Source of the DNA: a virus
Lineage: Duplodnaviria > Caudoviricetes
IMG/VR virus record: IMGVR_UViG_3300037631_002099
Location: 1 to 25,012 of that record
Length of the DNA: 25,012 bases
Strand: one strand, 5' to 3'
Every line of letters starts with the position of its first letter. Position 1 is the first letter of the stretch. The notes beneath the pieces were generated by a model. It was not told where the DNA came from. It ran no database searches and saw only the letters and a list, made by a program, of their open reading frames with translations. The position numbers and the translations under genes are program-made. Shown one piece after another: positions 110 to 13,554 of the stretch.

Positions 110-274
110 TTAATGCCCATGTCCAAAATTTACACCTAAAAACCAACCTAATGCAATAAACAATGGTCCTAAAATTAATAAATCTACAGCCCAATGTAAT
201 GCTATGGATAAAGTAACTATTTCTTTCCAATGTAATTTACATACATTTTTCCAGTGATCTAACTTTTCTCTCAT
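110..274 (-). CDS. 54-aa small membrane protein (MREKLDHWKNVCKLHWKEIVTLSIALHWAVDLLILGPLFIALGWFLGVNFGHGH), not in ORF track
   Basis: Translated by hand. ATGA overlap with the primase stop, TAA at 112-110, long hydrophobic segment, fills the gap exactly. Confidence 0.75.
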   Translation of the reverse strand: MREKLDHWKNVCKLHWKEIVTLSIALHWAVDLLILGPLFIALGWFLGVNFGHGH

Positions 275-1248
275 ATCATTTTTGCCTTAACTTTAATTTT
301 CAGTTCATTGTTAGTTGCATGTCTTATAATACTACTAACAGTAGCCATTCTGCCATAACGTTGTACAGCATCTGCGGCGTCTTTACAATCCACATGCCAA
401 GGTGGGAAACTTACTTCCCACCCTAGTTCAGCGGCCTGCATAATTAAATCTATACCTGCTTCGTCTCTGTCAGGGCAAACAATAATTCTTTTACCCAATT
501 TTTCTATTAGGTGTGCTTGTTCAGGACCAACACTATTACCTTGTATTGCTATTCCATCAATCATTATAGCATCAAAGACACCTTCTGTCACTATAACAAT
601 TTCTCTTTTACTATCTGCAAACCTATCTATATTAAAAACATATCCAGGTTGCATTTTATGTAAGTACTTAGGTGTTGTTTTATTAGGTGGATTTATATGC
701 CTAGCAGTCCAACCAACTAATTCTCCGTTATAAGAAAAGGGAACCACCAATCTTTGTTTATATAATGATTCCTCAAAATATAACAATGGATATAGACCAA
801 TAAGTCCCCTTTCTATTGCGTACTGCCTTACCGGATGTTCCTCAGGCAAATCATCTACTGCTATTGCAGTTTCAGGTAAATCTTCATTCTTAAACTTCGC
901 TAAATTATATACATAATCGGTAGTGTCTTCAGTTTCTAAATCTTCTGCATATTTTAATAAGTCAACAGTAACAGCATGTATATCTGTTTGATCAGCACCT
1001 AATTTTGTTGCTAAGTCTTTGTATTTTTTACCTAATGTAGGATTAGGTTCCCAACCTGTAGTAAACCCACAGTTAAAACAATTATAGGATATTTTTGCAC
1101 CAGTTGTAATAAGACCACCACGTTTCCTTTTATCAGTACACATTGGACAATCCATTGTATTCCAACCACTAGGAGTTTTACTTGTCCTTATAGGCAAGTT
1201 ATCCAAAAGGAGGCGGTGCACCTTTTCAACTAAGAAGTCTATATCCAT
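271..1248 (-). CDS. gp61: DNA primase, T4 gp61/DnaG-like
   Basis: N-terminal Zn ribbon (CPMC...CFNC), 'GWTAR', 'PKY', TOPRIM motifs 'IVTEGVFDA', 'CPDRDEAG', 'KDAAD'. Confidence 0.92.
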   Translation of the reverse strand: MDIDFLVEKVHRLLLDNLPIRTSKTPSGWNTMDCPMCTDKRKRGGLITTGAKISYNCFNCGFTTGWEPNPTLGKKYKDLATKLGADQTDIHAVTVDLLKYAEDLETEDTTDYVYNLAKFKNEDLPETAIAVDDLPEEHPVRQYAIERGLIGLYPLLYFEESLYKQRLVVPFSYNGELVGWTARHINPPNKTTPKYLHKMQPGYVFNIDRFADSKREIVIVTEGVFDAIMIDGIAIQGNSVGPEQAHLIEKLGKRIIVCPDRDEAGIDLIMQAAELGWEVSFPPWHVDCKDAADAVQRYGRMATVSSIIRHATNNELKIKVKAKMI

Positions 1249-1283: not shown

Positions 1284-2063
1284 CTAGTTTCTAATTAGTA
1301 CTTTACTTATAGAACCTGCTGTAGGGACATGTTTTATTCTAATCCAATTAGCATTAACTTTAAAAGTTTTATGTGTTAATACTGAAGAAGTTGTTAAAGA
1401 AAAATCTGAGATGTCAAACCAGTCTAAACTTGCTTCGTCACTGTTAGGAGAATTTTCTAAACAACTGCCTTGTATTGTGATAGTACCTGAATAGCCACTT
1501 GGATAGATTGCTAAACTGTGTAAAGAGTGATTAAAGTTTCTATCAACATTTCCCTTTACTGCACTTGAAGTATAAATATCCTCACCGGATTGTAAGAAGG
1601 TTTCTATTGTTTGCGTTTTTACAGGTTCTCTACCTATCTGATCTGATATCTCAATTTGGAATTTAAGTCCATTGTTTTGATCTGTAAATACCGGAGCATC
1701 AGAGCCGTCTTCTTTCTGCATTACAATATAAATTGTATATAATCCTGCGTCTATATTTACAAGATCACCATCATTTAAACTAAGTTTTATTTGCCCTACT
1801 TTAGTAGTTTCTTCTAATAATTTAGATAAAACTCTTCTTTTAGAAGTAGGGTTTACGAGGTTTGCACTAAAAGACTTACCAAATACATTTTGTTTCTTTC
1901 TATCTCTATCAGTAATATTAAATAATAATTCGTTAGTCATTCCTTTATGTGCTATTAATTTTCTGTTATTCATAGGCCTGTTATCCACATATACGCCATA
2001 GGAATCTAATACTATATCAATAATATTATCATATAAATACATTTTTTGATTTCCTTGGCTCAT
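1284..2063 (-). CDS. Hypothetical protein, probably virion structural (BppU-like N-terminal beta domain)
   Basis: 259-aa beta-rich ORF. 'HKGMTNELLFNITDRDRK...GQIKLSL...AGLYTIYI' resembles baseplate-upper-type Ig-like domains. Preceded by a TAAATA late-like motif. Function is inferred. Confidence 0.5.
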   Translation of the reverse strand: MSQGNQKMYLYDNIIDIVLDSYGVYVDNRPMNNRKLIAHKGMTNELLFNITDRDRKKQNVFGKSFSANLVNPTSKRRVLSKLLEETTKVGQIKLSLNDGDLVNIDAGLYTIYIVMQKEDGSDAPVFTDQNNGLKFQIEISDQIGREPVKTQTIETFLQSGEDIYTSSAVKGNVDRNFNHSLHSLAIYPSGYSGTITIQGSCLENSPNSDEASLDWFDISDFSLTTSSVLTHKTFKVNANWIRIKHVPTAGSISKVLIRN

Positions 2064-2085
2064 AAATTTACTCTTTCTATTGTAC

Positions 2086-2110
2086 TATTTATCAATACCT
2101 TACATAAATA
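2086..2110. promoter_or_regulatory. Back-to-back T4-late-like promoters: GATAAATA (minus, 2093-2086) and CATAAATA (plus, 2103-2110)
   Basis: Two divergent TAAATA motifs in the short gap between divergent genes; T4 late consensus is TATAAATA. Confidence 0.65.
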
Positions 2111-2115
2111 ACATT

Positions 2116-2496
2116 GTGGAGAAAAAAGATCTAATAGATTCAACAAAAGAAAAATATCCCTTTCTTACTGGCATATTGTATGGAGGTAAAGAATATGTTG
2201 GTATAGTAGTCAATCATGATAATAGTATCTTAACATTTTACGATATTGAGAAGATACCTACAATAGAAGATAAAAGAATATTCTTACAAATGGGAGAGAC
2301 ATGGTGGTGGGAATCTAATCGTATGCTACCTATAGATGTATTTTTAAATATAGAAATGAGAATGTTTCAACCTTGCTTAAAAACTTTTATAATGAAAGAT
2401 GTTGAAATATTATTTGGTCCTGTAACCACATTACAAAATTTATTAAAGAAACGTATAAAAAGACGTGGAATCCAATTAGTTAAAAAGACAGATTAA
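2116..2496 (+). CDS. Hypothetical protein (WWWES motif); probable start GTG at 2116
   Basis: Only complete plus-strand gene. The in-frame GTG lies 5 nt after CATAAATA, as at other TAAATA sites. The track start at 2080 overlaps the promoter region. Confidence 0.7.
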   Translation: MEKKDLIDSTKEKYPFLTGILYGGKEYVGIVVNHDNSILTFYDIEKIPTIEDKRIFLQMGETWWWESNRMLPIDVFLNIEMRMFQPCLKTFIMKDVEILFGPVTTLQNLLKKRIKRRGIQLVKKTD

Positions 2497-3063
2497 CTAT
2501 TCACAAATACTATTAAGTTGTACCATTATTGCTAGAGCATAACCATAACTATGACTCTTCTTAAAGAAGTAAGTCCCATCATTTGGTTTTACCCAAACAT
2601 TATCCTCTATCTCCTTCCAACTCTTTCCTACCAAGTGACGTTTACCAGGCCTTATAATTGCCAATATCATTGCTAATTGTTCTATATTAGTAGGAGTATG
2701 TTGCTTAACAATATCCCAATGGTTACTTATGTGGAACAACTGCTCAACAACTTCTTTATGTTGTAGAAGTTCCCACATGGGTTCTGTATTTACTAACTTG
2801 TTTAAATGTGCTTCATCTTTAATATCGTTGTATACACTAGCATTTAAAAAATCTACTTTAAACCAACCCTCATCTTCTGCTTGTTTGTGATCTATTGTAC
2901 TGTATCCTTGTAAAGGAAACTTAGGAATATTTTGAAAGTAGACGCCAGTATTGTGCTTAGTAAACTTACCATCCTTTTCAATACTTGCAGGAGTATGGTT
3001 AATTAACTTTAAAAAGTCATCTCTGTTAGCCATATCTATATCTACATCAAAATCAATCTTCAT
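2497..3063 (-). CDS. Miniature DNA polymerase III alpha (DnaE, C-family)-like protein, 188 aa
   Basis: Ordered DnaE motifs: FDVDID (PDxDxD), KHNTGV (HAxGV), GWFKVDFL (GLxKxDFL), LAIIRPG (ALYRPG), YFFKKSHSYGY (YxFNKSHAxAY). Confidence 0.8.
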   Translation of the reverse strand: MKIDFDVDIDMANRDDFLKLINHTPASIEKDGKFTKHNTGVYFQNIPKFPLQGYSTIDHKQAEDEGWFKVDFLNASVYNDIKDEAHLNKLVNTEPMWELLQHKEVVEQLFHISNHWDIVKQHTPTNIEQLAMILAIIRPGKRHLVGKSWKEIEDNVWVKPNDGTYFFKKSHSYGYALAIMVQLNSICE

Positions 3064-3313
3064 TAAACAACGAACTCCACTTCATTAATTTTTGTTCTTT
3101 TAAAAACATTCTGTCCTTTATTTGTTCCTCTGTAACAAATCCATCTCTTTTTAATAATTCAATCATACACATTAAATCACCAACTTCATCTTGTAAATTT
3201 TTTAAATCATTAGGACATTCATCATCTTCAAACCGTATTAGTTTACTACATGCCTGTACCAATTCACCGCATTCTTCCATTGTTATTGTAAGTAATTCTT
3301 GTTTCTTATTCAT
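3053..3313 (-). CDS. MazG-like NTP pyrophosphohydrolase (86 aa; start MNKKQ)
   Basis: 'EECGEL...LQDEVGDL' EExxE/ExxD motif; ATGA overlap with the upstream stop at 3310. Confidence 0.8.
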   Translation of the reverse strand: MNKKQELLTITMEECGELVQACSKLIRFEDDECPNDLKNLQDEVGDLMCMIELLKRDGFVTEEQIKDRMFLKEQKLMKWSSLFNED

Positions 3314-3969
3314 TTTTTTGTTGCCATTCTTTTTATATGGTTGTGTATTACCCAATTACAACTTATGCTATACCTAAAACTATTACCTAGCACCGGTGCA
3401 GTATAATGTAAAGTAGATGAAGGAAATATTAATAAGTCACCTTCTTCAGGTTCTAAATCAACACAGTATCTTCCAAATCCATTAGTATTTACTTCCTGTC
3501 CATATTGAAAATTTATTTGTCCTTTTTGTTTATGATTAGTTGTAGAATTAACTTTATAATATTCTACATTAGTATCTAATTCAATCCTAGGATATAAAAC
3601 TGTAACAATGTCTGCACTAGTTATGTGACTATGGATTGGATTATATTCCATTGCTATTTGTTTATTGTACCATGCAGATCTTAAATTACATATTGAATCA
3701 AAATTATTTTCTTTTAATATTTTTCCATATATTCCTGAATCTACAGTTTTTATATATTCATCTACATACTGAGAAATCGTATTAGAAACTTCTGAACCTT
3801 TTAATCTTTCAAGTATATGTACTTCTTCTTTTATATATCCAACTAAAGTATCTGTTGCATCTCTATGGGAGTTAATACAAATTTGATATAGTTCATTTGT
3901 TTCTTCTTTTGATAATTTTACCTTTGCTATCCTAGGTCCAAAAGATTCCAATAATTCAAATTTATTCAT
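3310..3969 (-). CDS. 2OG-Fe(II) oxygenase superfamily protein (TIGR02466-like)
   Basis: 'AWYN...YNPIHSH...VLY' and 'PEEGDLLIFPS..LH.....RYSISCN' DSBH motifs. Confidence 0.8.
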   Translation of the reverse strand: MNKFELLESFGPRIAKVKLSKEETNELYQICINSHRDATDTLVGYIKEEVHILERLKGSEVSNTISQYVDEYIKTVDSGIYGKILKENNFDSICNLRSAWYNKQIAMEYNPIHSHITSADIVTVLYPRIELDTNVEYYKVNSTTNHKQKGQINFQYGQEVNTNGFGRYCVDLEPEEGDLLIFPSSTLHYTAPVLGNSFRYSISCNWVIHNHIKRMATKK

Positions 3970-4646
3970 ATCCCTGCTACCTCACATGATTGTTTTACTT
4001 CTGCAACTTCTTCCTTATTACCAGCAAACTGCTTCATCCAAAAGGTTGCATCTATTATATCTGCAATCATCTTGACCTGCTCATCATTAAATCTTACAAG
4101 TAATTCGTCTCCTGTTTGACACAAATATAATACCCAAGGACTTATTTTTGCACTTCTAATATCATGTACTGCTCTTGCAGGGGAGACTAATTTAAAATAA
4201 TCCTGCCAAACGTTTTTACTCTCGTCACTCCATTTGGACAAATACATAATTGTTCGTTCTAAGGCCTTCATACCGGGTTCCTTTTTTACATAATGTAACA
4301 TATACTCATCATATAAACTATCTTTGCACCAGTCAGCAAGTTTCTTACCATTTTTAATAAGCCATTCTGCAAACTGCTCTGGATTTAAATATTCATTTGT
4401 GACACAACTTCTACCAAATTTTACAAAACCCTCATAGTACTGACTTTTAACAAAGTCTTCATATGACTTTGGTTTAGTTGCTGTGGTATTAATCTCATAA
4501 AACATTTGAAATACTCTATAACCTAATCTAGTATGTGTTAGATCTTTGTCTGCCATACGTCTTTTCTTGACGCACATATGAACACTAAGAGTACGTTCGC
4601 TTTTAAATGATTTGCCACACCATTTACATGTAAAATTATTTTCCAA
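3966..4646 (-). CDS. Zinc-finger protein (CxxC-x12-H-x-C), probable start TTG at 4646
   Basis: 'FTCKWCGKSFKSERTLSVHMC'; AAGGAG SD at 4656-4651 just before the in-frame TTG. Confidence 0.7.
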   Translation of the reverse strand: MENNFTCKWCGKSFKSERTLSVHMCVKKRRMADKDLTHTRLGYRVFQMFYEINTTATKPKSYEDFVKSQYYEGFVKFGRSCVTNEYLNPEQFAEWLIKNGKKLADWCKDSLYDEYMLHYVKKEPGMKALERTIMYLSKWSDESKNVWQDYFKLVSPARAVHDIRSAKISPWVLYLCQTGDELLVRFNDEQVKMIADIIDATFWMKQFAGNKEEVAEVKQSCEVAGI

Positions 4647-5103
4647 AGATCTCCTTAATTGTTTTGTCATCATAACCATGCTGTTTTGCTAAAGTTTTTA
4701 AATCTTCTTTTGTATTAAGATCAATAAAATTATTAATATCCTCACTTTTCATATGAGGGAAAACAGAATATACAAATTCAAATACCTTATTCTTTTTCTT
4801 TCTCGCATTAGGCGGTTTCAAATAAGGATGAAATTGTATTTTACCTGTACCACAGGCACTTAATAGTAACCATTGTAGTTCAGGATGTTTGCTAACTTCA
4901 CTAAATTGGTAGTTTACCAGTTCGTTTGTCATGAATATATAGTTTGCGGCATCTCTGCCTTGCACACTACTACAATACCTCATCATCATCCAGGCACTAA
5001 AGGCTTTTTTACCTTCATCCGTTAGGTTATTATAAAAGTTTCTATCCTTTTTGTCAATCGCCGCCATTATATCTTTTAACGGAATTTGAGGTTTCTTAGG
5101 CAT
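4636..5103 (-). CDS. gp62: Clamp-loader small subunit, T4 gp62-like
   Basis: Size and pattern 'IMAAID.K...F..WMMMRY.S...NE.VN...QW..L......K.FHPYLK' resemble gp62 family; replication context. Confidence 0.6.
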   Translation of the reverse strand: MPKKPQIPLKDIMAAIDKKDRNFYNNLTDEGKKAFSAWMMMRYCSSVQGRDAANYIFMTNELVNYQFSEVSKHPELQWLLLSACGTGKIQFHPYLKPPNARKKKNKVFEFVYSVFPHMKSEDINNFIDLNTKEDLKTLAKQHGYDDKTIKEIFGK

Positions 5104-5717
5104 TATTCTCCTTCGAACTCAACAAGAGTTTCTACATTATAGCCTTCTTTCTCTATTATAGCACTTCCTTCTAAATCGGGCAAGTCCACAACTGCTAAAA
5201 CTAAAATATTTTCTCTAGGAACATTCCAGCACTGACAAATTAAACTTGCTATTGCTAGGGCAGTTCCTCCTGTTGCAATTAAATCATCTACAATGACAAT
5301 CTTATCTGTTGGTTTCAAATTGCTGTTTTGTTGTATATGCAATGTTGCTTCACCATATTCTAATTTGTAATTTCTTTGATATGTAGGGTTAGGCAACTTA
5401 CCAGGTTTCCTTGCAAGTATTAAAGGCAATTCCATATCTCTTGCTACTGGAGAAGCAAACACAAACCCTCTGCTTTCTATCGCAACTAACTTTGTTGCAT
5501 TGAATTGCATACATGCTTTAGTAATGTCAATACATGCTTTATTGAACGCCTGTGGCGTTTCTAACATGCTTGTGATATCTCTAAATTGTATTCCTTCTTT
5601 TGGAAAATTAGGTACTGTTCTAATCGCTTCTTTTAAATCCATTTTATTTCTTGACTCTTCAAGTTCCTTTAACTGCGGGTATCTGGAATAGGCAGGATGA
5701 TTATACTTAGTATCCAT
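5103..5717 (-). CDS. apt: Adenine phosphoribosyltransferase (start either coupled ATG 5717 or core ATG 5642)
   Basis: 'IRTVPNFPKEGIQFRDIT', 'IESRGF', 'RKPGKLP', 'YKLEYG', PRPP-binding 'IVDDLIATGGT'. Confidence 0.95.
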   Translation of the reverse strand: MDTKYNHPAYSRYPQLKELEESRNKMDLKEAIRTVPNFPKEGIQFRDITSMLETPQAFNKACIDITKACMQFNATKLVAIESRGFVFASPVARDMELPLILARKPGKLPNPTYQRNYKLEYGEATLHIQQNSNLKPTDKIVIVDDLIATGGTALAIASLICQCWNVPRENILVLAVVDLPDLEGSAIIEKEGYNVETLVEFEGE

Positions 5718-6808
5718 TAGAATATATTTACTTTTTCCCATGGCATATCTTCTTTACCAAAGTGTCCATAGTTAGTTGTAGTAGTTAAGTCTAAATCAAA
5801 TAAATTAAATTTTTCAATTATACCTTTTGGTGTTAAATCAATGTTGTTCATAAAATAATCTGCAAACTCTTTTCTTACTTCACCATCTGCATATACATAT
5901 ATACTAGTTGGTTCTTTTACACCAATAGCATAACTTAATTGTACTGTGGCATTTTTTGCCTTGCCACTTGCTACAATATTCTTTGCTAAGTAACGTGCCA
6001 TATAAGCCGCACTTCTGTCTACCTTAGTACAATCTTTACCACTAAATGCTCCACCACCATGAGGTGCATAACCACCATATGTATCTACAATAATTTTTCT
6101 TCCTGTTAATCCTGTATCACCATCTGGACCACCTATAACAAATCTACCTGTTGGGTTGATTAACCATTTTGAATGTAATAAATCTACTTTGTCTTTAACA
6201 ACAGGCAGTATTATATCTATAACCTTTTCTCTAACTTCTTCTATACTTAATTCATCACTATGTTGTGTACTACATACTATAGTTTTAATATCTATTGGCT
6301 GTCCTACTTTATCATAATTAAATGTGACTTGTGCTTTACTATCAGGACCTAACCAATCTCCCCCATTGCGTCTAGTATTTTCTAATGCTTTGAGTATCTC
6401 ATGACTGTAATATATTGCACTAGGCATATGATTTGGTGTCTCATCACATGCATAACCAAACATAAGACCTTGATCTCCTGCTCCTAAGTCATCAGTACCT
6501 AATGCAATGTCTGGACTTTGGCCATGTAATTCATTATATACTTTTAGTTTTTCCCAATGAAACCCATCTTGTTCGTATCCTATATCTTGTACAACTGCTC
6601 TTACAATATCTTCAATTTCATCTTTATCAAACTTATCACTTTTGAATTCACCAGCAAGTGTAACCATATTGGTTGTTACTAAAGTTTCAACAGCCGCCCT
6701 ATGATTTATATTTTTATCTATTAAATAAGTTGCGACAGCATCAGATATTTGATCTGATATTTTATCTGGATGTCCGCTACTTACACTTTCACTTGTAAAT
6801 TCATACAT
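5717..6808 (-). CDS. metK: S-adenosylmethionine synthetase
   Basis: 'FTSESVSSGHPDK', 'GAGDQG', 'GGPDGDTGLTGRK', 'GGGAFSGKD', 'YGHFG' signatures. Confidence 0.97.
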   Translation of the reverse strand: MYEFTSESVSSGHPDKISDQISDAVATYLIDKNINHRAAVETLVTTNMVTLAGEFKSDKFDKDEIEDIVRAVVQDIGYEQDGFHWEKLKVYNELHGQSPDIALGTDDLGAGDQGLMFGYACDETPNHMPSAIYYSHEILKALENTRRNGGDWLGPDSKAQVTFNYDKVGQPIDIKTIVCSTQHSDELSIEEVREKVIDIILPVVKDKVDLLHSKWLINPTGRFVIGGPDGDTGLTGRKIIVDTYGGYAPHGGGAFSGKDCTKVDRSAAYMARYLAKNIVASGKAKNATVQLSYAIGVKEPTSIYVYADGEVRKEFADYFMNNIDLTPKGIIEKFNLFDLDLTTTTNYGHFGKEDMPWEKVNIF

Positions 6809-7131
6809 TAATTGTCTCCTTCTTTTACAAAGATACCATCTATCATTTTACCTTTGCGATCTTTTATATCATCATATGCTACTTGCAAACATTCTTCCAT
6901 ACTAATATTATTTCTTTTCATAATATTAATCATTACAACTAACATGTCACCTAAGTCGTCTCTAATATCGTTACCTTTACAGACATTATCTGATAACTCT
7001 CCCATTTCTTGTAGTAGTTTTAATACTTGATCTTTATCAGTTGCTCCTTCTATAAGATTTCTATCTGTATGCCATTGTTCTACTAGTTCAACTAGTTCAG
7101 GCAAGTTCCATTGTTCATTAATGCTATTCAT
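6808..7131 (-). CDS. MazG-like nucleotide pyrophosphohydrolase
   Basis: 'KLLQEMGEL...DDLGDMLVV...CLQVAYDDIKDRKG' phage MazG-like pattern. Confidence 0.85.
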   Translation of the reverse strand: MNSINEQWNLPELVELVEQWHTDRNLIEGATDKDQVLKLLQEMGELSDNVCKGNDIRDDLGDMLVVMINIMKRNNISMEECLQVAYDDIKDRKGKMIDGIFVKEGDN

Positions 7132-7937
7132 TATAATTTTCCTTTTTGTTTCATTTCTTTACGAATTTTAGTTGCACTGATGCTTTCAATGTCTGCATCT
7201 AATACTTCCTGCTCTACCTTATACCCTACATCTCTACCATATGTAATATTCATTATGTTAGGAACTGGATAACATCTAAACTTACCTGCATATTCATATA
7301 GTTCTTGTTCTATATTTTCACATATATCTTCAGGTGACCAAGGATTATTATCGTTCAAAGGCATGTCTCTTACAAGTATTGCAACTTGTCCATGTTTATC
7401 TAATGCTTTTTCAAATAATGCCTTATGGCCTGCATGGAACGGTTGGAACCTTCCTAACATTTGTGTAGTTGGTAGTTTTGGTTGGAATTCGTGATCTTTT
7501 ATATCAACAGCAATAAGTTTTGCCCATTGTTCTATTTTATCTTCTTCCCACCAGTCATCTTCAGTAATATGTACATTCACATCAACTTCTGTTTGATTAG
7601 TAGGCTTTTCAAATATAAGATTTGTATCTTCAAATCTACCTTTTTCTATAGTATCCATAAAAATTAAATACTCAGGCATAAATGTTTTTTGTAATTCATT
7701 TGTGGGGCAAACAAAATCAGCAACACCATACCTTCCTTTTGCTACACTTTTTCTTGTGTAATCCTGCATACGTTTCATTTGCCTTGCACGGCCTTTGTTT
7801 GTAAAGTCCCAGTCCTTAAACTTTGACCTTATTTCGTCTGCATTATAAAAATCTGCATTACCTAGTACTTCTACTAGTTTAGTTGCTAACGTTGTTTTAC
7901 CTGATCCAGGTAATCCACATATTAATATTCTTTTCAT
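7131..7937 (-). CDS. Fusion: APS-kinase (CysC)-like P-loop kinase + HxGH (cytidylyltransferase-like) nucleotidyltransferase
   Basis: N-terminal 'ILICGLPGSGKTT...NADEIR...DWDFT..GR.RQ...ADFVCP...FEKP'; C-terminal 'GRFQPFHAGH' and 'ISATKIR'. Confidence 0.85.
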   Translation of the reverse strand: MKRILICGLPGSGKTTLATKLVEVLGNADFYNADEIRSKFKDWDFTNKGRARQMKRMQDYTRKSVAKGRYGVADFVCPTNELQKTFMPEYLIFMDTIEKGRFEDTNLIFEKPTNQTEVDVNVHITEDDWWEEDKIEQWAKLIAVDIKDHEFQPKLPTTQMLGRFQPFHAGHKALFEKALDKHGQVAILVRDMPLNDNNPWSPEDICENIEQELYEYAGKFRCYPVPNIMNITYGRDVGYKVEQEVLDADIESISATKIRKEMKQKGKL

Positions 7938-10671: not shown

Positions 10672-10701
10672 ATTATACTACCAATTGTACTGTAATGTCA
10701 A
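10672..10701 (-). promoter_or_regulatory. Sigma70-type promoter for the uvsW operon (TTGACA-18-TATAAT), 5 nt before ATG
   Basis: Perfect hexamers at 10701-10696 and 10677-10672; -35 and spacer lie inside the receptor gene 3' end. Confidence 0.75.
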
Positions 10702-12363
10702 GTTAATTTGTCTACCTTGGTTGTCATAGTAAGGTAATATCTCTACTTCTTCATCAGTAATGTTATCAATCGCAAAGTTTAGATTCATACCATTAGTAAA
10801 TCTTTTTGTAATATACACACTAAGTTTTGTAAGATCTTCTAAAAACTCTTGTCCTACTGGGAGAACATCGTAAGCACCAGGCTTTCTATCAAACTGTCCT
10901 GCATACTGAACTTTATAATTTACATCTTTAAACATTTGTTCCCATGTAATAACACCAACATACTCAGGTACTCTAGTTTGATCTGTGTCATTTACTTTTA
11001 AATCAATACTAAATGAATTCCACGTATTAGAAAATCTAATACCTTGTGTATCATATGAGCCTGAATTATTATATTTTGCATTATAATAAATTGTTTCATT
11101 TACTTGATCAGTTAAAAGATTTCCATCTACATCATATGTAGCAGGAGAAACTAATACTGTTTCTGAATATGATGACGTATATTCTATTGCTTCTTCAAAT
11201 TCGTATTTAAAAATACTAATAGCACCAAACCCTATTTCATATCCAACTCCTTCCTCAGGAAGTAATTCATTATTTGGATCTACAAAGGCATCGCCATAAA
11301 GTTCATATAAGTTAGGCCTTCTATAACTAGTTCCTACATTAAAAAAGAACTGATCTTTTGCTATACCAAGTCTCATAGCATTTTGATCTTCGTTTCCGTA
11401 TCTAATACCAAAGTTGTACTCTAATGCAAACTTGGCATTTACACTTAAAAAGGCACCGTAGTTATCTTGTTTTTGTTCCATGTATTGATCTTTGCTACCA
11501 TCAACACCATAAGTGACATCTAATAAGTTAGATAATTTAACAGTATCGCCTGCTCTAAAAAAGTCTCTACTACTTTCATTTTGGTATGTACTAACACCTT
11601 CTGTAAAATATTCTGCTTTATCCTCTGATCTACCAATAGTAAAGAATTCGTTCCTAATACTTACAGTAAATCTTTCACCGTCCTGTAAGCAGTCGTTACT
11701 TTGTGACCAACTAGCAGTATAACAATTATCATAATCGTATGCATAATCTGTTGCATTTACATATAGTGTAAAGTCGCCTGCGTCTGCAATAATTTTTGCA
11801 CTAGTATTTTCATAAGTATCTTCTTCTTCGTTATCGTTTCTAGCATGTTGCTTTACTGAAAAATCTGTAACTTGTATCCAGTTTGTAGGTGCTACTGACA
11901 GATATCTGTGAGATTGGTTTCCTAATCTTCCAGTTACACCTTTTTTAATTGTATCTGTAATTAAAACTGTACCACCTATACTGCCTGAGCCATACATTAC
12001 ACTATTGGCTCCACTAATTACTTTAACGTCTTCGCCTGATACAATATCATGTGCAAAGTCATACCAACCTGAACCAGGGGTATTTTGATGTATTCCGTTT
12101 TTATAAACTGCTGTATGAACTGATTGTGTTCCTCGTTCTCTATATAAAATATTACCGCCATAGCCTCCTGCTATATAGGCCACTTCTGGTATTAAAGTAC
12201 TAATTAATTTAGTATCTGTAAGAGCATCTGTTTCTGTTTGTTTTACTTCTTGTGCAATAACAATTACCTCTTCAATATCTTCAGCAAGTGCAAATGCTGT
12301 CCATAAAGGTAAAGTAATAACTATTGCAATCTTTACAATATTATCGTATAGAAATTTTTCCAT
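10678..12363 (-). CDS. TonB-dependent outer-membrane receptor (BtuB-like, compact 561 aa)
   Basis: Signal peptide ending 'AFALA', TonB-box-like 'EEVIVIA', plug motif 'VISGANSVMYGSGSIGGTVLIT', 'YRRPNLYELY', 'IDNITD', C-terminal 'GRQINLTLQYNW' ending in an aromatic residue; AGGAGA SD. Confidence 0.88.
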   Translation of the reverse strand: MEKFLYDNIVKIAIVITLPLWTAFALAEDIEEVIVIAQEVKQTETDALTDTKLISTLIPEVAYIAGGYGGNILYRERGTQSVHTAVYKNGIHQNTPGSGWYDFAHDIVSGEDVKVISGANSVMYGSGSIGGTVLITDTIKKGVTGRLGNQSHRYLSVAPTNWIQVTDFSVKQHARNDNEEEDTYENTSAKIIADAGDFTLYVNATDYAYDYDNCYTASWSQSNDCLQDGERFTVSIRNEFFTIGRSEDKAEYFTEGVSTYQNESSRDFFRAGDTVKLSNLLDVTYGVDGSKDQYMEQKQDNYGAFLSVNAKFALEYNFGIRYGNEDQNAMRLGIAKDQFFFNVGTSYRRPNLYELYGDAFVDPNNELLPEEGVGYEIGFGAISIFKYEFEEAIEYTSSYSETVLVSPATYDVDGNLLTDQVNETIYYNAKYNNSGSYDTQGIRFSNTWNSFSIDLKVNDTDQTRVPEYVGVITWEQMFKDVNYKVQYAGQFDRKPGAYDVLPVGQEFLEDLTKLSVYITKRFTNGMNLNFAIDNITDEEVEILPYYDNQGRQINLTLQYNW

Positions 12364-12525: not shown

Positions 12526-13554
12526 TTAAACATTTTTTTGTCTATGCATACAAGTTGACTCAGCCAATTGTTTCCAATTGTCGAAATCCATCTTGGCCAA
12601 GTCAGCAATTTTAAGTACCATTCTCAAACTAAGTTCCCTAAGTCTAGCACTCTTTAAGACCATAAAGTCTATAATTTCTTTTTCAAACTCTTTGCTAAAG
12701 CCATACTCTTTAAGCATGCCATCTCTAACAATTTGATTAATCCTTAAAAACTTATCGCTAGTAGAGTCCATACCCAAATCAATGTAGTGACATCTTGACA
12801 TTAGTGCTTGTAAATGATCTTGTATTTTCTTACTTCTAACATTTTCAAAGTTTACATTAGTAATAAAGATTACGCCACCTTTAAATTCAAACCTATCAGG
12901 TATGTCTTCTCTACGAAGTGCTTGTGATTCTGCTTTCCAACTAATTGTTCTCTTTTTACCAGAGTCCAATACTGCTTTTAACATATTCAAACATACTTCA
13001 TCAAATAATACTGTATCGCAGTCATCAAATACAAGTATGTCACCTTTTGACGAATTGTTAAATAATGTTTTGTACAAACCAATTGGTGTCATAGAGCCCT
13101 TAACAATTTCTGTTTTAACACCACCACCAAGTTTTGCCATTGCATCATACTCTTCAAGTATAGTTTCAACACCAAAACTTTTACCTACTCCTGGAGGGCC
13201 ACTAACAATAAGTCCTCTAACAGTACCATTTGCTACAGCATCAGTCATTTGGTCTAATACCTCAAATCTCTTTTTAATCCTATCCATAGCCTGTTGAGTA
13301 GTTTCCTTTTTCTTAGGCTCTTTTTTAACTGGCATAAGTGCTTGATAGTCTTCTTTAGATGAGGGTTCAACACTAAGTGGTGAATCAACTAAAATCCTTA
13401 CTCTTTTAGATTCAGGACCCATTAAAGCAGAACCATCTACCGTTACAAACGCACCTTTTTTACCAAAGGTTAATGGTTTTACTAGTGGAAAAATCGCATC
13501 TTTAATAGGTGCATTGCGATAGGTACCTTTTTTAATTTTAACAAAGTTTTTCAT
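12526..13554 (-). CDS. AAA+ family ATPase
   Basis: Walker A 'GPPGVGKS', Walker B 'LVFDDCD', sensor 'FITN', arginine finger 'ALMSRC'; GGGAGG SD. Confidence 0.85.
   Translation of the reverse strand: MKNFVKIKKGTYRNAPIKDAIFPLVKPLTFGKKGAFVTVDGSALMGPESKRVRILVDSPLSVEPSSKEDYQALMPVKKEPKKKETTQQAMDRIKKRFEVLDQMTDAVANGTVRGLIVSGPPGVGKSFGVETILEEYDAMAKLGGGVKTEIVKGSMTPIGLYKTLFNNSSKGDILVFDDCDTVLFDEVCLNMLKAVLDSGKKRTISWKAESQALRREDIPDRFEFKGGVIFITNVNFENVRSKKIQDHLQALMSRCHYIDLGMDSTSDKFLRINQIVRDGMLKEYGFSKEFEKEIIDFMVLKSARLRELSLRMVLKIADLAKMDFDNWKQLAESTCMHRQKNV

Follow-up and report, generated by a model that had tools for sequence, protein, structure and literature searches.

A 188-residue phage protein as the C-terminal unit of a split minimal DNA polymerase III α

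Introduction

What is the function of a 188-aa phage protein that carries the motifs of the bacterial replicase DnaE? The question is raised by an ORF within 25,012 nucleotides of a virus of the Caudoviricetes (IMG/VR record IMGVR_UViG_3300037631_002099, positions 1 to 25,012; hereafter the window). Two points are at stake: can a C-family core polymerise at all when it lacks a thumb and comes in two pieces, and why is it kept under strong selection in phages that replicate with a family B enzyme of T4 type? Answers would show how small the catalytic unit of the bacterial replicase can be, and they could bring to light a hand-off of primers that is not known from T4.

According to excerpts of Iyer et al. 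(2021, PMC7824862), group 2.2 jumbo phages, among which Atu_ph07 is named, encode a minimal Pol III α as two proteins from distant genes, of which the N-terminal one binds NTP and the C-terminal one Mg and template. In the same excerpts the split enzyme occurs beside a family B polymerase, with synthesis of one strand or repair as its suggested role; further domains of Pol III are said to be absent, and the module serves to model the ancestral enzyme. The ORF studied here is the C-terminal unit (C unit) of this split enzyme, described from sequence in 2021. A sequence-only reading of the window had listed one piece of a split polymerase among its explanations, correctly and in line with that earlier description. 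Like the published system, as far as the excerpts describe it, the window phage has a gp32-type SSB, UvsX/Y/W and a DnaG primase, and its relatives have a family B polymerase and two distant unit genes; there is no difference in kind. New beyond Iyer et al. are a single-chain form (P0284), near-adjacent unit genes in the phage RsoM2USA, a 141-kb phage with both units, a hint of a PHP remnant and the retention of H171. No experimental work on the split family was found in the literature searched, which comprised journals open without subscription, and excerpts of two surveys of bacterial polymerases (PMC3919608, PMC12926913) and of one on viral replication (PMC4889955) held nothing on it.

The ORF encodes a trimmed DnaE palm

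The ORF matched the PHROGs family phrog_11778, annotated as DNA polymerase, with an E value of 1e-65. Pfam and PDB searches with the single ORF sequence gave nothing useful, and tblastn of E. coli DnaE against the window reached a best E value of only 2.4. As claimed from the sequence alone, the ORF is intact and its motifs stand in the order of E. coli DnaE, with six anchors (D6/D401, H37/H511, D71/D555, F110/F609, R138/R639 and H171/H760; Table 1). This ordered pattern was matched by 0 of 100,000 shuffles, a weak control with a pattern drawn post hoc from the query. A register equating D4/D6 with D401/D403, taken from a profile of close relatives, was dropped: D4 varies and is not conserved, and the catalytic pair is therefore D6/D8.

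Table 1 Features of the window around the C unit and motif anchors of the ORF
Feature	Position	Strand	Remarks
DnaG-type (Toprim) primase	271..1248	-	phrog_47, E 4e-42, Toprim_2; about 1.3 kb downstream of the C unit
Virion structural protein, phrog_14467	1284..2063	-	between C unit and primase; 62/67 diverse loci
Convergent gene, phrog_11637	2080..2496	+	stop abuts the C-unit stop; 71/72 diverse loci with room
C unit of split minimal Pol III α, phrog_11778	2497..3063	-	188 aa, ATG to TAG; palm strands with D6/D8/D10, H37, K69/D71; trimmed fingers with RP138-139, KKSH168-171; no thumb
Anchor 1, DVDID	ORF residue 6		DFDVD at 401 of E. coli DnaE
Anchor 2, KHNTG	ORF residue 36		KHAGG at 510 of E. 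coli DnaE
Anchor 3, FKVDF	ORF residue 68		VKFDF at 552 of E. coli DnaE
Anchor 4, QLFHI	ORF residue 108		AVFQL at 607 of E. coli DnaE
Anchor 5, IRPG	ORF residue 137		FRPG at 638 of E. coli DnaE
Anchor 6, FKKSH	ORF residue 167		FNKSH at 756 of E. coli DnaE
Variable insert, MazG-like and 2OG-Fe(II) oxygenase genes	3053..3969	-	between zinc-finger gene and C unit
C2H2-like zinc-finger protein, phrog_11058	3966..4679	-	usual upstream neighbour; 38/41 diverse loci
Likely small clamp-loader subunit (gp62-like), phrog_11758	4636..5103	-	38/41 diverse loci

The spacing of D6 and D71 was measured as 65 aa, compared with 154 aa between D401 and D555 of E. coli DnaE, in agreement with the values of about 65 and 150 aa given earlier. 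The proposed deletion of the thumb and shortening of the fingers are borne out as well: about 79 residues are gone between D10 and H37, the thumb region (boundaries in E. coli DnaE, as we take them, 433-510), and about 88 between RPG and KSH in the fingers. The thumb is an insertion in the polymerase fold according to section 15 of PMC11646218. The flanking frames hold no other part of DnaE and a TAA is the seventh codon past the TAG stop, both as noted before. Readthrough of the stop codon as a way to a longer protein is ruled out, with homologs ending in TAG (48), TAA (31) or TGA (1) at 188-194 codons.

All of the nine best PDB matches of the family profile are DnaE (E values 1.5e-5 to 4e-4). 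The structure model of the C unit has a pLDDT of 95, and the structural comparison proposed as a check turned out in favour of the polymerase assignment: the top 14 Foldseek matches are all C-family polymerases, and in VIA-align 173-187 of the 188 residues overlay 15 DnaE and PolC entries (rmsd 3.5-4.6 Å, Z 5.9-9.4). The overlaid part corresponds to residues 397-777 of E. coli DnaE, and the next unrelated fold reached a Z of 3.8. D6 aligns with D463 of the Taq enzyme, with no gap between it and the start of the alignment. The ORF is a C-family polymerase palm with equivalents of the catalytic triad D401/D403/D555. It does not have the single-chain DnaE layout of PHP, palm, thumb, fingers and HhH, and the GS motif of the Pol-β fold is absent from it and invariant in the partner N unit.

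Palm topology and Asp triad are shared with bacterial DnaE (2HNH and 5FKU from E. coli, 2HPI and 3E0D from T. aquaticus, 5LEW and 7PU7 from M. tuberculosis) and with PolC (3F2B), and so are K553, RPG, the KSH helix with H760 and, on the partner unit, GRGS. In contrast, the split enzyme comprises about 350 residues in two chains where DnaE has about 1160 in one, and it is without thumb, HhH, clamp motif, OB, CTD and intact PHP; R390, R396 and R709/R710 are lost.

Conservation and selection

Homologs of the C unit made up 2773 of 2781 candidates, and the best 120 of these are 188-194 aa long. All 80 close loci are intact, with 188-194 codons and three different stop codons, so the length of the homologs is steady and not erratic. 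Compared with the window, dN/dS has a median of 0.10 and a maximum of 0.16 (76 of 80 pairs, which are not independent; three pairs were excluded as too close and one as saturated). The earlier view that the gene is under selection and not in decay is upheld by these values and by the invariant triad. A decaying fragment of a DnaE pseudogene, to which the large internal deletions relative to DnaE might point, is already refuted by the 80 intact loci, the median dN/dS of 0.10 and the 2773 homologs, and we give it practically no weight.

For residue conservation an alignment of 95 rows was used, consisting of the window protein, 86 of 150 listed representatives (near-full-length) and eight close homologs; the other 64 representatives, which are fragments, chimeras and a fusion protein, were omitted. 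D6, D8, K69, D71 and P139 are present in 95 of 95 rows, so the acidic triad is retained, as the sequence-only reading had stated. H37 and R138 are kept in 94 rows, H171 in 93, D10 in 92, K168 in 90 and K141 in 87. The homologous sequences are 31-55% identical with a mean column identity of 27%; nonetheless the metal ligands and GRGS are invariant. A search for expression gave five runs with small shares (contigs only).

A partner unit in related phages

The absence of PHP and GS motif noted earlier holds for the ORF, since it has no GRGS; nevertheless the GS motif, perhaps with a PHP remnant, is not simply lost and lies on a separate gene in relatives. A search for a complementary DnaE fragment had been suggested. 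None is present in the window: neither the ORF nor the six frames of the window contain GRGS, the N-unit profile had no match in the six frames (best E value 0.63) and PF07733 none (0/1). Such a fragment was found in relatives. G001, with 78% identity to the window in its C unit, encodes an N unit of 158 aa at a distance of 194 kb from the C unit; in Sinorhizobium phage Phosso the N unit has 177 aa. Both match PF07733. The window's record is 7% complete and the N unit is not in it; by comparison with its relatives, the window's own phage presumably encodes one.

By hhalign the N unit aligns only to residues 273-395 of E. coli DnaE. WGVGRGS is invariant in 64 of 64 N units. In 72 of 79 viral N units the distance from the start of GxGRGS to the C-terminus is exactly 35 residues, an end point that equals E. 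coli 393. The cut point lies between the equivalent of 393, where the N unit stops, and about 397, where the C unit begins. The position of E. coli R390 is occupied by Glu in 62 of 64 N units, and R396 and R709/R710 lie in stretches deleted from the split polymerase. We take these four arginines to be the triphosphate ligands of E. coli DnaE; as they are missing, catalysis may be slow or different.

Both units were found in 7 of 17 long records, 34-224 kb apart, and in four of the five records that are at least 60% complete; one record of 60% completeness (G007) has the C unit only. With the single-chain P0284 as query, 193 places in 101 phage records were matched (60 rows listed), which corresponds to two places in about 92 records, provided that no record has three or more. 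Ralstonia phage RsoM2USA has the two units 4.2 kb apart, with the N unit upstream, within a co-oriented run of about 5 kb that comprises N unit, GroES, both clamp-loader subunits, zinc finger and C unit. Alishewanella phage Slickus01 (OQ508957.1), with 141 kb well below jumbo size, has both units 11 kb apart. A GTDB scan for the N unit yielded 18 loci, all in metagenome-assembled genomes, which is consistent with phage contigs. PF07733 is also reported from 51.9% of a cluster of marine jumbo phages (PMC9123017).

Downstream of the N unit (L083:667-1498, minus strand) a 161-aa gene is present in 71 of 79 loci and a GroES-like gene in 75 of 79. An open frame of 576 codons (G009:C1:62416-62619), about 6 kb from the C unit, matches the N unit weakly and is possibly a second, longer DnaE piece.

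A single-chain form

P0284 is a single chain of 375 aa in which N and C unit are joined by a linker of about 9 residues; end to end it corresponds to both PHROGs, 11778 of the C unit and 11127 of the partner. An alignment to residues 319-417 of E. coli DnaE runs across the N/C junction (E 3.5e-6). Its model overlays DnaE as one body (329-331 of 375 residues, rmsd 4.1-4.4 Å, Z 14.7-15.1), which may reflect likeness to solved structures. The model has a pTM of 0.72, and the pLDDT of the GS loop (151-154) and of the junction (163-188) is below 50. The underlying alignment is shallow, with 29 rows chosen for correct registration: 3 of 59 subsets were correct, one of which was folded, and an alignment of 101 rows with misaligned N units was discarded.

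P0284, a singleton from a contig of 2.4 kb, could be an artefact of assembly rather than a natural protein. Relatives were found in 0 of 18 stretches of viral contigs and 0 of 259 metagenome contigs, and similar fusions in 0 of the 18 GTDB N-unit loci. Plasmid matches to P0284 proved to be annotated dnaE genes covering 27-31% of the query. Among 169 candidates for longer forms of the C unit, the search retained one, a protein with a methyltransferase domain whose match covered 45% of the query; the search missed P0284.

In 15 of 15 polymerase rows, given as range ends only, the overlay of P0284 starts at residues 9-16 of DnaE or 344-349 of PolC, presumably the beginning of the PHP domain. Because the overlay starts there, the model hints at a remnant of PHP in the N unit and at an origin of the module by reduction from full DnaE, which bears on whether it is ancestral, as proposed, or reduced. 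No PHP remnant was found by sequence in the hhalign comparison of the N unit, and the hint therefore derives from the structure ranges.

Clusters of 355-378 aa in the ESM Atlas (52-108 members, scores 0.93-0.94) combine PF07733 and PF17657, the DnaE palm and finger families. Their label is Bacteria, or Bacillota in the few cases where a phylum is given, and they are possible unsplit mini-DnaE relatives.

Genomic neighbourhood

The window carries a T4-like SSB, UvsX, UvsY, UvsW, a terminase and a DnaG primase, and the order terminase-SSB-UvsX-UvsW-C unit-virion-primase is common to the window and Phosso. The family B DNA polymerase is not in the window fragment and is present in both relatives searched (G001 and Phosso). 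Among cultured phages the C-unit gene occurs in 96 records, mostly of jumbo phages (Atu_ph07, PA5oct, RaK2, 121Q, GAP32).

The primase is linked to the C unit in 51 of 51 diverse loci with room. Homologs of phrog_11758 in RsoM2USA and Slickus01 match the clamp-loader family phrog_225 (E 5.5e-7 and 3e-4) and come after the gene of the large clamp-loader subunit; phrog_11758 is likely the small (gp62-like) subunit. The zinc-finger protein is of the eukaryote-like C2H2 type, with C18, C21, H34 and C36 invariant in 48 rows; it was considered as gp59-like, and only zinc-finger matches were found. In the variable insert, the MazG-like gene is present in 8 and the 2OG-Fe(II) oxygenase gene in 4 of 41 diverse loci. 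PDB profile searches for two further neighbours, including phrog_11637, gave no match.

Proposed function and alternatives

The reading that we consider probable is that the ORF provides the aspartate-bearing half of a two-gene, thumbless DnaE-type polymerase, which pairs with the N unit and works alongside the family B replicase, adding short stretches of DNA at primers or gaps. N and C unit would bind 1:1 without splicing and rebuild a Pol-β-type site, in which D6/D8/D71 of the C unit would hold two Mg ions and the GRGS helix of the N unit would bind the triphosphate. H171 (E. coli H760) would act as a sugar gate that excludes ribonucleotides, and the product would for that reason be DNA. 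The function of the lost DnaE arginines may have passed to K141 and K168, invariant basic residues that are new to the split enzyme. The enzyme would be distributive and unable to proofread because thumb, HhH, clamp motif, OB fold, intact PHP and a proofreader are lacking.

As its job we tentatively favour the extension of RNA primers from the primase, which the gp43-type polymerase would then take over, by analogy with B. subtilis DnaE and PolC, as the C gene is linked to the primase, the likely small clamp-loader subunit and the zinc-finger gene. Gap filling in recombination-dependent replication would be the next likeliest job, close behind. Excerpts of PMC5627055 describe B. subtilis DnaE as a primer extender before hand-off to PolC; it is a model of function only, with short synthesis and then hand-off, and is full length, unlike the split enzyme. 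African swine fever virus PolX, in excerpts of PMC11646218 a minimal repair polymerase of palm and fingers only, is likewise comparable in the way it works and belongs to another polymerase family. The gene order also fits the earlier suggestion, itself conjectural, of a primer-handling partner of primase and clamp loader. Partners are poorly predicted by gene order in T4-like phages, and a virion gene and a convergent gene separate the C unit from the primase. It is conceivable, albeit doubtful, that N and C unit form the smallest working C-family DNA polymerase, a DnaE that has shed its thumb, the outer fingers and most of PHP rather than a primordial module, serving in a T4-type replisome as a Pol-α-like primer extender between DnaG primase and family B replicase.

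The two units might instead form an active but non-templated nucleotidyltransferase that adds nucleotides to DNA ends, RNA or protein or makes a signalling nucleotide. Loss of the thumb, the DNA-gripping domains and several DnaE arginines would suit such an enzyme, and the P0284 model shares its core with Pol-β-fold transferases at Z 3-4. Nevertheless, replicative polymerases are the best structural matches by a wide margin, K69, the RP motif and the KSH helix of DnaE are retained and the gene remains in the replication block, which makes this unlikely. That the 188-aa protein works alone as a minimal nucleotidyltransferase is the least probable of the readings still considered, although it folds confidently by itself (pLDDT 95) and the unit genes are usually 30-220 kb apart: the GS helix of the fold is missing, and the N unit is kept in all complete genomes checked, ends at the cut point and is fused to the C unit in P0284. 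Since the ORF has no GRGS helix, the earlier term minimal nucleotidyltransferase is tenable for both units together and not for the ORF alone.

Improbable, too, is a non-catalytic scaffold or decoy for host or phage replisome parts. The exchange of R390 for Glu in 62 of 64 N units and the loss of R396, R709 and R710 are compatible with it; however, metal ligands and GRGS are invariant across sequences of 31-55% identity, and the DnaE surfaces for clamp, tau and epsilon are among the parts deleted or reduced. The decoy of the sequence-only reading is thus disfavoured, because the catalytic residues are invariant in both units. Marginally less probable still is a second primase or a ribonucleotide extender. 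Small size, lack of processivity domains and linkage to the helicase-primase block would accord with a maker of RNA primers, but a DnaG-type primase is encoded next door, and H171, the counterpart of H760, which excerpts of PMC8485763 call the presumptive steric gate of DnaE, is kept in 93 of 95 rows. The two-gene DNA polymerase remains our preferred reading.

Further genes of the window

The convergent phrog_11637 gene is a lone opposite-strand gene with an invariant WWxSNR motif and matches no known family. A metabolic insert (5103-7937, minus strand) encodes an APRT-like phosphoribosyltransferase, S-adenosylmethionine synthetase, MazG and a kinase-cytidylyltransferase fusion. Positions 12526-13554 (minus strand) encode a 342-aa AAA ATPase (phrog_1250) weakly like the large clamp-loader subunit (E 5e-4), and positions 10678-12363 (minus strand) a 561-aa TonB-dependent-receptor-like phage protein with a Plug domain (E 3e-8).
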